A stretch of 64,000 bases of DNA from Escherichia phage PhiR41_1, in the sequence record PV340561; one strand, written 5' to 3'. Position numbers and translations under genes: made by a program. Shown here one piece after another: positions 5,813-8,738 of this stretch (position 1 is the first letter of the stretch; every line of letters begins with the position of its first letter). Under the pieces are notes generated by a model, which searched no databases, had not been told where the DNA came from, and saw only the letters and a program-made list of their open reading frames with translations.

Positions 5813-6613
5813 ATGAAGAATGGGGTGAATAAAAAATACTCATTAGCATTGTTAATAGCGGCTTTACTATTAACAGGTTGTGATTCTGATGAAGAGCGAG
5901 CCATAGATCTAGTTGAAAAGGATATTCGCTCTACACTGCTAGATCCTGATGCTGGTCGGTTCACGAATATGCGAGCTATTCAGTTAGGTGAAAATAGCTA
6001 TTCATATATGGTATGTGGAGAGGTGAATGGTAAAAACGTCTTGAACGCCTATACAGGTGCGACCGCATTCAATGCACACATCTTTGATGTTCGTGAACGT
6101 AACCCGATTGTATTCGTTGCAATGGATAAAAGTACCAACTCGGCAAGAGAACGATTACGTTTTGAACGCCAAAATCTAGCATGTAAAGAAAATGGTGTGA
6201 AACTTTATCTGGAAAACGAATCTAAAATCAGGAAGGAAAAAGAGAAAATAGATGATTTAAAAAAAACTCCATTAGGTCAGGCTGTGTTTGATGCTGCAAG
6301 TGATTCGACATATGTGAGTAGAGAGTTGGGCGAATCGAGAGGTGTTAGTGAAGTGTATGCAAGAGAAAATGATAAATATGCTCTTGTTAGCGTCACCAAT
6401 TATGACACTCCTGACTTTTACAAATTTAGGAAAAAAGACAACGGTGAACTAGAACCTGTTAGGGGACTGTCTTATACCGGCTATCCATTCGCGGTTACAC
6501 TGTGCCATTCTGAACAAACAGATTATGACAAATGTATAACAGAAGAAGAAATCAAGTTGCTTCGAGACGAAAAGAATAAGCTCGATGATTTTGTCGTGCC
6601 ACCAGAAGAATAA
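5813..6613 (+). CDS. predicted lipoprotein (266 aa)
   Basis: N-terminal signal with lipobox LLTGC; AT-rich composition. Confidence 0.55.
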   Translation: MKNGVNKKYSLALLIAALLLTGCDSDEERAIDLVEKDIRSTLLDPDAGRFTNMRAIQLGENSYSYMVCGEVNGKNVLNAYTGATAFNAHIFDVRERNPIVFVAMDKSTNSARERLRFERQNLACKENGVKLYLENESKIRKEKEKIDDLKKTPLGQAVFDAASDSTYVSRELGESRGVSEVYARENDKYALVSVTNYDTPDFYKFRKKDNGELEPVRGLSYTGYPFAVTLCHSEQTDYDKCITEEEIKLLRDEKNKLDDFVVPPEE

Positions 6614-6725
6614 CATATACAAAATATTTAATTGCTGTTAATATTTAATCGTTCAGACATAGGGAAAGTCCGAACCCTCGACAAATCTTTCTGATATTGT
6701 CGAGGGTATGCTTCCAAGTGATGAG

Positions 6726-7100
6726 CTACTTATACCCTAATTCTTTACAGCTTTCTTCAAAAACCTCTTTAGGTAGGATATTTAGATCTACAATAGTGTT
6801 GCTGTTCTTGGTTAACACGTCATTGTAAGGAATTTGTACCCATCTGTAACCTGTATACCCACCATATGAGTTAGTCGCATTTAGTTTGAAACAATATGTA
6901 TTGCTACCTTCAACGTGATCTGGGAATTTGTATTTAGCTGCATCCGGGGCCAGTAATTGTTTTTCTATAATATTTTTAATGTAATCTTGCTGAACGGGCG
7001 TTAAAGGTTTGGCTACTGTATTTCCTATATAGAATGCCAAGAGTGCCATAGAAAAAAATTGAATTTTTTTAGACTTCATCTTTTTAACCGTCTTTGACAA
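6726..7100 (-). CDS. predicted secreted small protein (124 aa)
   Basis: N-terminal K-rich/hydrophobic signal peptide (KKIQFFSMALLAFYIGNTVA). Confidence 0.5.
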   Translation of the reverse strand: MSKTVKKMKSKKIQFFSMALLAFYIGNTVAKPLTPVQQDYIKNIIEKQLLAPDAAKYKFPDHVEGSNTYCFKLNATNSYGGYTGYRWVQIPYNDVLTKNSNTIVDLNILPKEVFEESCKELGYK

Positions 7101-7107
7101 TGAGAGT

Positions 7108-7683
7108 TTATGAGCGTTTGTTGAGCAGATCTACAATCAGCTTTTGAGGTGTATTTTCCTCTTTTGTCTTAGGTAATCCATTCTGAGGTAGCGTCGATAG
7201 TCTGTTCTTATCTCCTCTAGGTAACTCAAGCCTTTTCTTGATCTGCACAATAAGTTCCCATAGACTGTCTTCGTTCTCAACCTTTATAGAGTAGCCTACG
7301 CCACAATATGAATCACTTTTTAAGCGATTGTGAATTTTGAACGTATTGAAGTTTGAGCTTAACTGAATATATCCTGGGGTAATACCATCTATACTTTCGA
7401 TCACAGGAAGTATTTCTTTTATCTGGAAAGGGAAAATGACCAATGAATAATCATCTCGTCTTTCCTCATTGTCTGGTGAAATTAAATAAATGTAGTAAGG
7501 GTTGTTTTTTGAATAAGATTCTCGTAATGCTGAACTCTTTCCGAAGTAGAAACCTTTAGCGTGAATTTTATCTTTCGTTTCTTTCCCCCGTTGTATCTGA
7601 ATGTTATTTTCGCTAAGTGTCCCATTTGATACATATGAAGCTTTATCCAATATCGTGTGAAGTTGTGTATTTGAAAGAGCCAT
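7108..7683 (-). CDS. hypothetical protein (191 aa)
   Basis: ORF 7 nt upstream of next gene, same strand; AT-rich. Confidence 0.5.
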   Translation of the reverse strand: MALSNTQLHTILDKASYVSNGTLSENNIQIQRGKETKDKIHAKGFYFGKSSALRESYSKNNPYYIYLISPDNEERRDDYSLVIFPFQIKEILPVIESIDGITPGYIQLSSNFNTFKIHNRLKSDSYCGVGYSIKVENEDSLWELIVQIKKRLELPRGDKNRLSTLPQNGLPKTKEENTPQKLIVDLLNKRS

Positions 7684-7827
7684 TAGCTATCCCTTCGACC
7701 AAACTCAGCGATGAAGCCTACAAATATCATTCAGCCAATCAAGAATTTTTTTCAGCCGGAGGTGTGCACTTCAAAAAATGTGATGAATGTCACATGCAGG
7801 TGCTCTCATACACCTGCATGTAGACTA

Positions 7828-8427
7828 TTAATCATTCAATAATCTATATTTTCTTTTGATTAAATCTTCACCTTTTTTGGTGAACACAAAACCAAATTGC
7901 GATTTTTTGTTCAGCCTAAGGACTCTGTTATCCAACGCATCGGTTGATGGAATCAATGTTTGATCATCTATCCAATTTAGTAGCGTAAGAAAGTTCAGCA
8001 GCCTCAACGTTGTTGTGCGAAGCTCTTTCGATATATTTTCAATGCTGGCAATTCGTCTTTCTTTTTTCTCAGGTAGTACAGATAATTGTTCTTGAGGTTT
8101 CGTGGATAGATAATCAATTTCGTTTGCAGCATCGAATGATATGTGTGGCGTTATTTTGCTAAAAAAGCCTTTCGCTGACTCACTTGATAATAAACCAGAC
8201 CTATTCATATCGTTTGTTATTCTGTACAGGAGTGGACTGTGTTTCATTTCAGGATAACGTTGATAAAAGTTAAGCAATTCAAAAGCAGCATTAGCGCCAA
8301 CAAGAAAATCAGAAGGATCGCTGACTTTCCAGAAAGAATGATTTTTCTTAGCGCCAGTGGTGTCAACAAATGATAATTCTTTTAACCAACTCATGATGTG
8401 CTCCTTTCTAACAAGTGAGCACATCAT
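7828..8427 (-). CDS. hypothetical protein (199 aa)
   Basis: ORF in same-strand array downstream of helicase; AT-rich. Confidence 0.5.
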   Translation of the reverse strand: MMCSLVRKEHIMSWLKELSFVDTTGAKKNHSFWKVSDPSDFLVGANAAFELLNFYQRYPEMKHSPLLYRITNDMNRSGLLSSESAKGFFSKITPHISFDAANEIDYLSTKPQEQLSVLPEKKERRIASIENISKELRTTTLRLLNFLTLLNWIDDQTLIPSTDALDNRVLRLNKKSQFGFVFTKKGEDLIKRKYRLLND

Positions 8428-8459
8428 AGAATTAGTAGATAGGGGGTAAATATGAAATG

Positions 8460-8738
8460 TTACGGCAACCTGCTCAGTATTTCCTCTAGATCTTTTTTTG
8501 TCATATTGGAGTTTTCATAGATGCGCATGATTTTCTCACGCGTCTTAGCGGAAACCCCAACGGCAGATGTGACTTTGTCAAATTCAGCCATAGTCATCGT
8601 CTCCAGAATGGCATTGATAACTTCAGCCTTAGACATCTTGATTTTTTTCTCTTTGAGTTTTATTTGGAATTTTCCAAGTTTTTCATTGGCCTTATCAGAC
8701 AATGCCACTTGGCAATAAGTTGTTTTCTTTTCGCTCAT
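8460..8738 (-). CDS. small DNA-binding protein, ribbon-helix-helix-like (92 aa)
   Basis: N-terminal beta-strand-like TYCQVALS then two helices (ANEKLGKFQIKL / SKAEVINAILETM) resembling CopG/Arc fold; start abuts helicase stop. Confidence 0.4.
   Translation of the reverse strand: MSEKKTTYCQVALSDKANEKLGKFQIKLKEKKIKMSKAEVINAILETMTMAEFDKVTSAVGVSAKTREKIMRIYENSNMTKKDLEEILSRLP

Follow-up and report, generated by a model that had tools for sequence, protein, structure and literature searches.

A putative envelope-cargo slot beside a hairpin-covered, putatively locked gene in the backbone of SSU5-like phage-plasmids

From our analysis of a window of 64,000 nucleotides (the whole stretch of DNA under study), the sequenced element was found to be an E. 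coli SSU5-like phage-plasmid of the pLF82/phage Cyrano type, with 95.6% identity to phage Cyrano and 99.9% to plasmid CP025888. Positions 5813-8738 of the window are an old, conserved yet fast-evolving AT-rich part of the SSU5-supergroup backbone, which does not form a single imported module. The new result is a conserved hairpin that buries the Shine-Dalgarno sequence and the AUG of the 188-aa gene within this block. The reading that we favor, with a probability of roughly 0.55, is that a backbone segment carrying a helicase-linked gene and a hairpin-locked 188-aa gene adjoins a slot for envelope cargo, an architecture to which we attach putative functions throughout. The features are as follows, in window coordinates.

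5192-5710, minus strand: FljA-like protein (repressor of phase-1 flagellin family; PF03614 at 1.3e-68), the downstream scaffold anchor, given as context
5813-6613, plus strand: 266-aa lipoprotein (phrog_20234) with lipobox LLTGC and Asp at +2, in the opposite orientation to the other genes of the block
6674-6707, no strand assigned: hairpin between the convergent 117-aa and 266-aa genes, from folding
6707-7712, minus strand: optional 191/117 cassette, an indel relative to Cyrano/pLF82
6726-7079, minus strand: 117-aa periplasmic protein with a predicted signal peptidase I signal, a phrog_2320 domain and a conserved Cys pair
7108-7683, minus strand: 191-aa cytoplasmic protein (phrog_29155) with a YgaC/DUF2002-like core fold
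7789-7825, minus strand: 12-bp hairpin just past the 188-aa stop codon, with no adjacent U-tract
7828-8394, minus strand: 188-aa orphan protein (phrog_13473), specific to the SSU5 supergroup
8385-8436, minus strand: leader hairpin burying the Shine-Dalgarno (AAGGAG) and AUG of the 188-aa gene
8460-8738, minus strand: 92-aa core small protein (phrog_1466), starting 2 nt past the helicase stop
8741-10300, minus strand: SF2 helicase (DEAD/ResIII, UvsW-like; Pfam ResIII, DEAD, Helicase_C), the upstream scaffold anchor, given as context

The earlier note had described the block as AT-rich, and a windowed GC calculation agreed, giving 0.371 for 5813-8738 against 0.445 for the whole window. Among same-size windows (sd 0.037), 6.5% were as low as the block, the remaining equally low ones all lying in a second island at ~48-55 kb, and GC3 was 0.31-0.34 in the 188-, 191-, 117- and 266-aa genes versus 0.50 in the helicase. 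All five ORFs of the block were recovered at the coordinates first given for them, with two starts corrected. The true start of the '199-aa' ORF is ATG 8394 behind the AAGGAG Shine-Dalgarno (188 aa), on which RefSeq and phrog_13473 concur, the spurious upstream ATGATG being supplied by the left arm of the leader hairpin; for the '124-aa' ORF the likeliest start is ATG 7079 (117 aa). The tight abutment of the 92-aa gene with the helicase, the signal peptide on the last minus-strand ORF (MKSKKIQFFSMALLAFYIGNTVA, followed by KP after the predicted cut) and the plus-strand lipoprotein gene were likewise as described. The statement that no motif could be assigned also stood, the 92-, 188-, 191- and 117-aa proteins having no match in Pfam, NCBIfam or PADLOC and the 266-aa protein no significant one. 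The proposal of a single acquired module led by a regulator did not survive the comparison, as the 92- and 188-aa genes are part of the backbone throughout the SSU5 supergroup, their positional orthologs ranging from Klebsiella to Moellerella and Xenorhabdus. Orthologs in other genera are equally AT-rich, so the AT-richness is old and is no sign of recent acquisition. Block orthologs elsewhere share 42-61% amino acid identity, whereas the 216-aa gene reaches 83-86% and the helicase 91-93% (against SSU5, Klebsiella, Cronobacter and Salmonella). An accessory nature holds for the 191/117 cassette and for the cargo between the 188-aa and fljA-like genes, which vary, and not for the rest, which is backbone.

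Orthologs of the 92-aa gene lie directly 3' of the helicase in every case. The protein matches phrog_1466 at 1e-45. Its identity is 54-59% with SSU5_123 and with the orthologs of Klebsiella, Cronobacter and Salmonella, and falls to 26-32% in Morganellaceae; SSU5 keeps the gene without any other gene of the block. In published RNA-seq from Cyrano, a phage that is without the 191/117 cassette, transcripts of the helicase ortholog CYRAN_118 are seen in the plasmid state, and those of the 92-aa ortholog CYRAN_117 stand 12-fold over prophage background (PMC9928086). A ribbon-helix-helix (RHH) fold, as had been suggested for the 92-aa protein, is possible and unproven. Searching Pfam with five orthologs showed no RHH family at E up to 10, a PDB profile search returned designed helical repeats only, against the C-terminal half, with no RHH structure among them, and hhalign gave nothing against Arc and Mnt. 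Against CopG (an approximate query), hhalign placed residues 11-48 on 7-39 with 30% identity, E 0.015 and a probability of 3%.

The 188-aa gene follows after 65 nt, a spacing which contains the structured leader. Its product shows 42% identity with the orthologs found at the same position in Klebsiella, Cronobacter and Salmonella, and the family was found in six enterobacterial genera, with 21 hits in 1.84 billion representatives, all from plasmid contigs of ~100-118 kb. The gene is truncated in clusters P0013-P0017 and split in E. albertii plasmids. Conservation is highest in the C-terminal ~75 residues, which may form a KilAC/ANT-like helix-turn-helix, judging from sub-threshold PF03374 hits in two family members (alignment A3, E 0.04; P0049, E 0.1 and 13.4 bits, against a gathering threshold of 25.3 bits). 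The P0049 hit spans residues 134-200, which is its C-terminal domain; the window's own 188-aa protein gave no PF03374 hit, a profile search with the family found no N-terminal Ant, BRO or KilA-N domain, and the AF2 model (pLDDT 42) was unusable. In Cyrano lysogens, RNA of the 188-aa ortholog CYRAN_116 is near background, the gap to the 92-aa ortholog being ~13-fold in LB (fpkm 114 against 9) and as much as ~18-fold in DMEM (PMC9928086). The 92- and 188-aa genes were also considered as an obligate co-expressed pair, which was rejected, SSU5 having the 92-aa gene alone and the RNA levels diverging. The hairpin just past the 188-aa stop codon (-25.4 kcal/mol, z -4.1) was not called by the terminator scan and may mark a transcript boundary or a site of processing.

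The leader hairpin folds at -28.2 kcal/mol (z -5.8), a value which none of 200 shuffles equaled. It is clear in seven of the nine lineages (z -3.3 or lower) and present in eight counting a weak one, Xenorhabdus (z -1.8), in which the stem covers the Shine-Dalgarno; folding of the Providencia leader gave no convincing hairpin. The 188-aa leaders had a mean z of -4.35 against -0.35 for 90 other gene starts (p = 2e-5), and pairing of the ribosome-binding site was likewise stronger than at the 90 control starts (p = 4e-4), both p-values overstating independence because the nine lineages are related. The hairpin arms are near-invariant in four enterobacterial lineages while the loop ranges from 13 to ~25 nt, and the alignable leaders hold one compensatory CG to GC pair, a score which 91 of 500 shuffles reached and which is not significant. 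In Moellerella, Xenorhabdus and the second Klebsiella lineage the stem sequences are unrelated, and in Moellerella and the second Klebsiella lineage these unrelated stems still pair across the AUG. Conceivably, the repeat could instead act as a DNA operator, a transcription terminator or an RNase III site with no translational lock, as the perfect palindrome arms with their near-invariance in four lineages might suggest, and termination or processing could explain the drop in Cyrano RNA. We consider this rather unlikely, since the spacer variation is beyond the tolerance of a dimeric operator, no other copy of the arm sequence occurs in the 64-kb window, and no U-tract follows the stem, where the terminator scan made no call. 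Moreover, the stems keep their position (across the AUG, or over the Shine-Dalgarno in Xenorhabdus) despite unrelated sequence, which is sensible only for RNA. Processing of the hairpin by RNase III would also accord with the favored reading.

A translational lock on the 188-aa gene is what this structure and its conservation suggest to us. Hairpins that sequester a ribosome-binding site in cis lock harmful genes in hok-family mRNAs and at the MS2 lysis and replicase starts, and the 188-aa leader resembles these in its stable stem over Shine-Dalgarno and AUG, with position kept and sequence drifting. Unlike them, it has no Rfam match, and the upstream ORF ends >25 nt before the stem, which is too far for simple ribosome-driven opening. 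Similarities can also be drawn with the immunity-I antirepressor modules, namely arc-ant of P22 with its sar antisense RNA and c4-icd-ant of P1. In both, as here, a small gene (possibly RHH in our case) precedes a larger one with a possible ANT/KilAC domain, the translation start of which would be blocked at the RNA level. The differences are that the RHH and KilAC calls are sub-threshold here, that the block would be a cis hairpin with no antisense RNA identified, that N-terminal Ant, BRO or KilA-N domains and a nearby LexA box were not found, and that the 92-aa gene is coupled to the helicase with no promoter of its own.

Comparison of lineages places the 188-aa gene at the edge of a variable slot. 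The order helicase, ~92-aa gene, ~188-aa gene, variable slot and FljA-like gene is shared by nine lineages that span Escherichia to Xenorhabdus, those beyond the window being Klebsiella, Cronobacter, Salmonella, a second E. coli lineage, Moellerella, Xenorhabdus, Providencia and a second Klebsiella lineage. The interval from the 188-aa to the fljA-like gene holds different cargo lineage by lineage, and across the nine this cargo consists almost entirely of exported or membrane proteins, according to predicted signal peptides, lipoboxes and transmembrane segments, with families such as phrog_2320, phrog_890 'lipoprotein', DUF2846 and PH_gly_zipper. FljA-like homologs adjoin the slot in all nine. 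FljA is a post-transcriptional repressor of phase-1 flagellin (PF03614), and the neighboring 172-aa protein, encoded outside the flagged interval, is a full-length member of this family. Klebsiella pneumoniae is classically non-flagellated, and yet its elements retain the FljA-like gene, so the target there may differ from flagellin mRNA. The Cyrano ortholog CYRAN_114 is transcribed in lysogens, in which the structural genes are silent (PMC9928086).

In the present element, the slot holds the 191/117 cassette and the inverted 266-aa lipoprotein gene, moron-like variable genes with a GC of 0.35-0.39; a promoter scan gave nothing above chance. At the cassette site Cyrano has 177 unrelated bases instead, and its homology ends at the hairpin between the convergent genes and ~30 nt upstream of the 191-aa start. 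The cassette occurs in 8 of 5,426 complete E. coli genomes, 90 of which carry the 92+188 segment; it is thus absent from 82 of the 90 carriers, as well as from Cyrano/pLF82. The 117-aa protein matches phrog_2320 at 2e-24, is 61% identical to orthologs in Klebsiella and Cronobacter, and is paralogous to the N-terminal half of the 266-aa lipoprotein. The lipoprotein matched both phrog_20234 and phrog_2320; its phrog_2320 domain lies at the N terminus and is followed by a charged linker and then by a C-terminal domain. The 266-aa protein is 99% identical to CYRAN_115, whose expression in lysogens is at log2 ~4.8 in LB and 8-9.4 in DMEM and macrophages (PMC9928086). A homolog of the same length and orientation (31% identity, E 3e-10) sits in the Providencia slot. 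The hairpin between the 117- and 266-aa genes, a candidate bidirectional terminator, folds at -23 to -31 kcal/mol (z -3.2 for the minus strand, -3.8 for the plus strand), with its stem kept and its loop different in Cyrano. The 191-aa protein superposes structurally on the DUF2002/YgaC fold (PDB 2g7j) over the whole domain, with 16% identity, no profile match and extra N- and C-terminal segments; Pfam at E up to 1 gave no hit, neither to PF09400 nor to another family, and a PDB sequence search at E up to 10 none. To our knowledge YgaC has no known function, so the match gives no mechanistic explanation. As a cytoplasmic protein, the 191-aa product does not fit an envelope role.

Phage morons and lysogenic-conversion hotspots offer the closest parallel to the slot, together with exported exclusion proteins such as Llp of T5, Cor of phi80/N15/HK022, Sp of T4 and Ltp of Streptococcus TP-J34. 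Like these, the slot genes are small, predicted to be exported or lipid-anchored, and of a composition unlike their flanks; they are variably present in close relatives, one is terminator-bounded and transcribed in lysogens, and phrog_2320 homologs occupy moron positions in other temperate phages (P2-like phage SEN5 and lambdoid phage Fraca). Among the hallmarks of morons, transcription in lysogens with silent lytic genes was found for CYRAN_115 and CYRAN_117 in published LF82 RNA-seq, and variable presence, atypical composition and an own terminator for the slot genes (by indel mapping, GC and hairpin folding). Unlike sporadic moron insertions, the slot is a fixed backbone feature across two bacterial families. 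Superinfection exclusion, which had been raised before, stays the best guess for the exported proteins, with no Pfam, PHROG or NCBIfam likeness to any of the named exclusion families (Cor, Llp, Ltp, Sp). That the exported proteins are lytic-cycle parts, for example spanin-like or lysis-timing proteins, is suggested by a weak hit (E 0.021) to an Rz-like spanin PHROG, limited to the signal region of the 266-aa lipoprotein. This we regard as very improbable, given that CYRAN_115 is transcribed in lysogens with silent structural genes, that presence varies among otherwise near-identical elements, and that the P2-like and lambdoid homologs lie outside lysis cassettes.

An acquired anti-phage defence or toxin-antitoxin operon, in which the 92-aa protein would be an RHH-like regulator or antitoxin and the 188- and 191-aa proteins effectors, would account for a small, possibly RHH-like gene upstream of larger orphans (with CopG aligned in register), for the AT-richness, and for a tightly repressed 188-aa gene that is at times truncated or frameshifted, as is common for toxic genes. 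A related Klebsiella SSU5-like plasmid also lowers the plating efficiency of three lytic phages 10-100-fold, a whole-plasmid phenotype with no gene assigned (PMC8969562). This idea, which the earlier note had raised among others, appears quite unlikely in light of our searches. PADLOC-DB 2.0 gave chance-level matches only for the five block proteins and their orthologs (e.g., SspC, E 0.005) and, for the helicase, only generic SF2 domains of PbeA and similar models; no known defence family was found with PADLOC, nor any toxin or antitoxin family in Pfam, NCBIfam or PADLOC. The systems that a DefenseFinder survey of SSU5 elements reports are different ones, with none described for this locus (10.1101/2025.09.12.675607). 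Further, the 92-aa gene is universal, helicase-coupled and persists in SSU5 without the 188-, 191- and 117-aa genes, the 65-nt gap and the ~13- to ~18-fold RNA gap of Cyrano are unlike type II toxin-antitoxin pairs, conservation is vertical over two bacterial families, and two of the five proteins are exported, which is a poor fit with a cytoplasmic operon of either kind. Alternatively, the 191-aa and perhaps the 188-aa protein could be early anti-defence or host-takeover proteins, with the exported proteins as unrelated passengers. The genes are small, family-restricted orphans which diverge fast (42-56% identity) and in E. coli occur as two or more alleles besides a null one, their neighbors are replication and partition genes expressed on entry, and the fold is one with no known enzymatic function. 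We nevertheless hold this to be unlikely, as no likeness to known anti-defence proteins was found in PHROGs, Pfam and BFVD, and the few known anti-defence genes reported in the SSU5 group include none described at this locus (10.1101/2025.09.12.675607).

Returning to the favored explanation of a locked backbone gene beside an envelope slot, the 92-aa gene would be read along with the helicase while the element is in its plasmid (lysogenic) state, as is seen for its Cyrano ortholog. The 188-aa gene on the same strand would be held off post-transcriptionally by the leader hairpin pairing its Shine-Dalgarno and AUG; its RNA, being untranslated, would therefore be scarce, and the protein would be made only once something opens or cleaves the stem. 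Such a protein could be a tightly controlled regulator or a host-harmful early protein, antirepressor- or Kil-like, possibly binding DNA through its KilAC-like C-terminus. The slot between the 188-aa and FljA-like genes, occupied here by the optional 191/117 cassette and the inverted, lysogen-expressed 266-aa lipoprotein gene, would perform lysogenic conversion of the cell envelope, most probably as superinfection exclusion or receptor masking from the periplasmic side, next to an FljA-like control of flagellin. In essence, the block of this E. coli phage-plasmid may best be read as a slot for lysogenic-conversion or exclusion cargo beside a translationally locked regulator.

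Over positions 5000-11000 the window shares 95.6% identity with Escherichia phage Cyrano (plasmid pLF82 of strain LF82); the part with the helicase and ParB shares 80% with Salmonella phage SSU5, and the stretch 5700-8800 matches a 112-kb E. coli plasmid at 99.9% identity and 189 plasmid records in total, nearly all from Escherichia or Shigella. The window is therefore part of an SSU5-like E. coli phage-plasmid. The features of the AT-rich block at 5813-8738 and its borders that concern us are as follows.

Features in and around the block
4243-4893, minus strand: gene for a 216-aa protein (phrog_1513)
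5192-5710, minus strand: FljA-like gene, annotated 'repressor of phase-1 flagellin'
5813-6613, plus strand: gene for a 266-aa lipoprotein
6707-7712, minus strand: optional cassette of the 191-aa and 117-aa genes
8385-8436, minus strand: leader hairpin of the 188-aa gene (-28.2 kcal/mol, z -5.8), within the 65-nt gap before that gene

All five ORFs claimed in the earlier note were found, and its tight abutment of the helicase with the 92-aa gene was confirmed (stop 8741-8743, start 8738, a separation of 2 nt). The ORF read as 199 aa exists, but its start is ATG 8394, preceded by the Shine-Dalgarno sequence AAGGAG; this start, which the RefSeq annotation and phrog_13473 also use, gives 188 aa. 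Likewise, the 124-aa ORF and its signal peptide are present, but the start is most likely ATG 7079, giving 117 aa and a signal peptide of standard type that ends in TVA|KP. The convergent plus-strand gene does encode a lipoprotein, with the lipobox LLTGC followed by Asp. The AT-richness was borne out by a windowed GC calculation (0.371 in the block vs 0.445 in the whole window), and GC3 is 0.31-0.34 in the 188-, 191-, 117- and 266-aa genes vs 0.50 in the helicase. Among windows of the same size the GC standard deviation is 0.037 and 6.5% are equally low, the rest of them all coming from a second island of low GC (about 48-55 kb); the compositional break is thus real but moderate.

The earlier note had read this break, together with the tight abutment, as suggesting an acquired accessory module, which our comparisons contradict: the block consists of backbone genes and a variable slot, and each position has orthologs, equally AT-rich, in other genera. 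In SSU5, a 92-aa gene (58% identical) likewise lies directly after the helicase and is followed by one unrelated lipoprotein and then the FljA-like gene; the 117-aa protein was considered as an ortholog of that lipoprotein (SSU5_122) and rejected, the families being unrelated. In elements of Klebsiella, Cronobacter and Salmonella the helicase is followed by genes for proteins of 92, ~178, ~191-201 and ~117 aa (the last sometimes replaced by another secreted protein) and then by the FljA-like and 216-aa genes, with positional orthologs 54-59% (92-aa), 42% (188-aa), 47-56% (191-aa) and 61% (117-aa) identical. A profile search traced the 188-aa family to Cronobacter, Klebsiella, Salmonella, Citrobacter and Enterobacter, and an exhaustive HMM search of 1.84 billion representative proteins returned only 21 matches, none outside SSU5-type plasmids. 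The remotest, from Moellerella, Providencia and Xenorhabdus, are all on contigs typical of such plasmids, and their loci keep the scaffold of helicase, small protein, 188-family gene, variable genes and FljA-like gene. Block orthologs in other genera have a GC of 0.32-0.42 vs 0.46-0.51 for their helicases, and the neighbours are far more conserved than the block genes (helicase 91-93%, 216-aa protein 83-86% identity). Since the orthologs are equally AT-rich and fast-diverging, these are long-standing properties of the segment and no evidence of recent import. The 92- and 188-aa genes are backbone, which is newly demonstrated here; the genes themselves have existing database entries, as hypothetical proteins and PHROGs without a name. 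The 216-aa gene, found in every lineage, is AT-rich like the block (GC 0.378) and yet its product is 83-86% identical across genera, so that low GC alone is no mark of accessory genes in this element. Among E. albertii plasmids, those of 62-64 kb carry the entire block at 98.6% identity; in them the 188-aa gene is in two ORFs and no helicase is annotated in the adjoining 3.3 kb (8128-8696 and 9040-12358 in p2014C-4015-1, comparison locus L003, 63.8 kb). These plasmids look like decayed phage-plasmid derivatives.

The leader of the 188-aa gene holds a hairpin that none of 200 shuffled sequences equalled in folding. The Shine-Dalgarno sequence and AUG sit in its 3' arm, and the upstream ATGATG behind the 199-aa reading is its 5' arm. 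The arms recur in Klebsiella, Cronobacter, Salmonella and a second E. coli lineage, where the loops measure 13 to ~25 nt. Leaders unrelated in sequence also fold over the start: a 15-bp stem in Moellerella pairs across the AUG (z -7.95), nested stems in a second Klebsiella lineage cover the Shine-Dalgarno sequence and AUG, and a 9-bp stem in Xenorhabdus covers GGAG; the Providencia leader gave no convincing hairpin. We then applied a uniform fold test (-55 to +15 around the start) to the nine 188-family leaders and 90 other gene starts from the same loci. The mean z was -4.35 vs -0.35 (sd 1.31) in the controls (Mann-Whitney p = 2e-5), and the pairing probability at -13 to +3 was 0.74 vs 0.50 (p = 4e-4), both p-values being generous because the lineages are related. 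Covariation in the alignable leaders amounted to one compensatory pair, not significant against a shuffle control, and the hairpin has no match in Rfam. A DNA operator is unlikely, because the spacing varies, the arm has no further copies in the window and the sole constant is that the hairpin overlaps the start of translation; an intrinsic terminator is unlikely too, since the stem is not followed by a U-tract. From the sequence comparisons we conclude that the 188-family gene is probably under conserved translational repression in cis, by a newly described ribosome-binding-site lock.

Transcription in the plasmid state can be read from Cyrano, which is without the 191/117 cassette. Its ortholog of the 92-aa gene, CYRAN_117, stood 12-fold over prophage background in RNA-seq of LF82 (PMC9928086, Table 1).

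Expression of Cyrano genes (log2 fpkm in LB, DMEM and macrophages; supplementary table of PMC9928086)
Helicase ortholog: 5.5-8.3
92-aa gene ortholog: 6.8-9.9
188-aa gene ortholog: 3.0-5.9
266-aa lipoprotein ortholog: 4.8-9.3
FljA-like gene ortholog: 4.2-8.1
Structural genes: about 3-4
Repressor: 6.6-10.3

From these values, the helicase, 92-aa, lipoprotein and FljA-like genes are expressed in the plasmid state, and the 188-aa ortholog is nearly off despite the well-expressed gene directly upstream; its low RNA level would fit an untranslated message that is unstable or subject to polarity. Consensus scans for promoters and terminators gave no signal above chance, and LexA-box matches in the block were at chance level with none at its promoters.

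The variable part of the locus lies between the 188-aa and FljA-like genes. Compared with Cyrano, the cassette is exchanged for 177 unrelated bases; the breakpoints of homology fall precisely on the hairpin that separates the convergent genes and ~30 nt ahead of the 191-aa start. A further perfect 12-bp hairpin directly 3' of the 188-aa stop (7789-7825, minus strand; -25 kcal/mol, z -4.1, no adjoining U-tract) is kept in Cyrano just beyond the cassette junction. The 92+188 segment is present in 90 of 5,426 complete E. coli genomes, plasmid-borne every time, and the cassette in only 8. Direct and inverted repeats, as a possible sign of a mobile cassette, were at chance level. A second E. coli lineage carries a 55% identical 191-aa allele, ahead of which it encodes a zinc-ribbon protein with two transmembrane segments and a DUF2846-like lipoprotein. 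The slot holds a DUF2846-like protein on the opposite strand in Moellerella, a tandem pair of DUF2846-like lipoproteins and a glycine-zipper membrane protein in Xenorhabdus, one transmembrane protein in the second Klebsiella lineage, and in Providencia a homolog of the 266-aa lipoprotein (31% identity, E 3e-10), inverted as in the window, which rules out that this lipoprotein is an Escherichia-specific insertion. With the exception of the 191 family, all slot proteins examined have transmembrane segments, a lipobox or a signal peptide. One domain, phrog_2320, is common to the 117-aa protein and the N-terminal half of the 266-aa lipoprotein, and in it a DPD motif is invariant and a Cys pair conserved; relatives lie between ogr and int in P2-like phage SEN5 and inside the tail gene row in lambdoid phage Fraca, which are classic moron positions. 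An Asp after the lipidated Cys is a classical inner-membrane retention signal in E. coli. The 266-aa lipoprotein (residues 20-25) has Asp at +2, predicting retention in the inner membrane, and its Providencia and SEN5 homologs have Lys, predicting outer-membrane sorting; because of this difference the homologs may act in different envelope layers.

Variable moron slots as such are ordinary in temperate phages, and what is newly delimited here is a supergroup-wide slot loading envelope proteins. Its function would be lysogenic conversion of the envelope, most probably by excluding incoming phage or DNA or by masking a surface structure, beside the FljA-like regulator. On a Klebsiella SSU5-like plasmid, three lytic phages plate 10-100-fold lower and transformation is reduced, with no gene assigned (PMC8969562); the effect is compatible with an exclusion role and not specific to it.

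The earlier note had also raised the possibility of an anti-phage, superinfection-exclusion or toxin-antitoxin-like system, in a block led by a ribbon-helix-helix-like regulator. This fold found no profile support in the 92-aa protein (Pfam, PDB sequence-profile); against CopG, the register was right and the probability 3%. The absence of an assignable motif held, the 92-, 188-, 191- and 117-aa proteins having no Pfam, NCBIfam or PADLOC match and belonging solely to PHROGs without a known function. When all block proteins and their orthologs were run against Pfam, NCBIfam, PADLOC and PHROGs, unnamed PHROGs were all that came up; Foldseek matched nothing among viral structures, and a functional study of the block genes was not found in the literature. 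A defence or toxin-antitoxin operon headed by the 92-aa protein is disfavoured by this lack of family matches, by the SSU5 92-aa gene being independent of the others, by unequal RNA levels and by the export of products. A spanin-like lytic role is contradicted by transcription of the lipoprotein ortholog in the lysogen. The cytoplasmic orphans could, with low probability, have an anti-defence role. PDB sequence-profile searches with the 92-, 188- and 191-aa families returned nothing meaningful.

For the 188-aa protein, the conserved core is the C-terminal ~75 residues, two family members gave sub-threshold matches to the phage antirepressor KilAC domain (E 0.04 and 0.1), and the AF2 model was unusable (pLDDT 42). 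Residues ~16-78 of the family have a non-significant profile match to the third zinc-binding domain of human PARP1 (E 0.27), probably by chance. In the antirepressor modules P22 sar-ant and P1 c4-icd-ant, translation is blocked at the RNA level; by analogy, the 188-aa protein could be a regulator or a host-harmful early protein that is locked in the plasmid state.

The FljA-like protein matches PF03614 over its full length (E 1e-68), with weak Hfq/LSM-like matches in its C-terminal part (E about 0.08), and its gene flanks the slot in all nine lineages (also in comparison loci L005, 6037-6567, and L020, 4385-4966). It is kept in elements of Klebsiella pneumoniae, and since this host is classically non-flagellated, its target there may not be flagellin mRNA. 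A bolder reading, which we hold to be improbable, is that the hairpin-locked 188-aa gene encodes the lytic-switch effector of SSU5-type phage-plasmids (antirepressor or Kil-like), whose lock is worked in trans by the FljA-like RNA-binding protein. The real target of that protein could then be phage mRNA instead of flagellin mRNA, and the 92-aa gene, hairpin, 188-aa gene and FljA-like gene would, if this is true, form a new post-transcriptional immunity module bracketing a cargo slot.

Other loci in the window were also noted. A perfect LexA-type box, TACTGTTTACTTATACAGTG, at 54596-54611 adjoins 54640-55743 (plus strand) and 55738-56124 (minus strand); it is 29 nt upstream of an integrase-like gene divergent from a putative repressor gene, and could be how SOS induction, reported for Cyrano, comes about. 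The second island (~48000-55000) is AT-richer than the block (GC down to 0.31 at 50-51 kb), includes an AraC-type regulator ORF (53325-54107) and matches by position a Cyrano region with several toxin-antitoxin 'morons'. Divergent from the helicase, from 10365-12393 (plus strand) onward, genes for two ParB_N-domain proteins and an ABC-type ATPase form a conserved cluster, which continues in relatives with 84-aa and ~296-aa proteins; the Cyrano annotation describes the latter as an ATPase with a fused acetyltransferase domain. In appearance this cluster differs from a standard ParAB partition system.

In clinical E. coli, Shigella, Salmonella Typhi and Klebsiella, SSU5-type phage-plasmids are a common find, with lysogeny control and host effects that are for the most part uncharacterised. 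A false lead is removed, as nothing in the block resembles a known defence or toxin-antitoxin system. In essence, backbone is now told apart from true cargo at one SSU5-type locus, a gene specific to the supergroup appears to be held under a conserved translational lock, and the envelope proteins of the slot are candidates for exclusion or surface remodelling.
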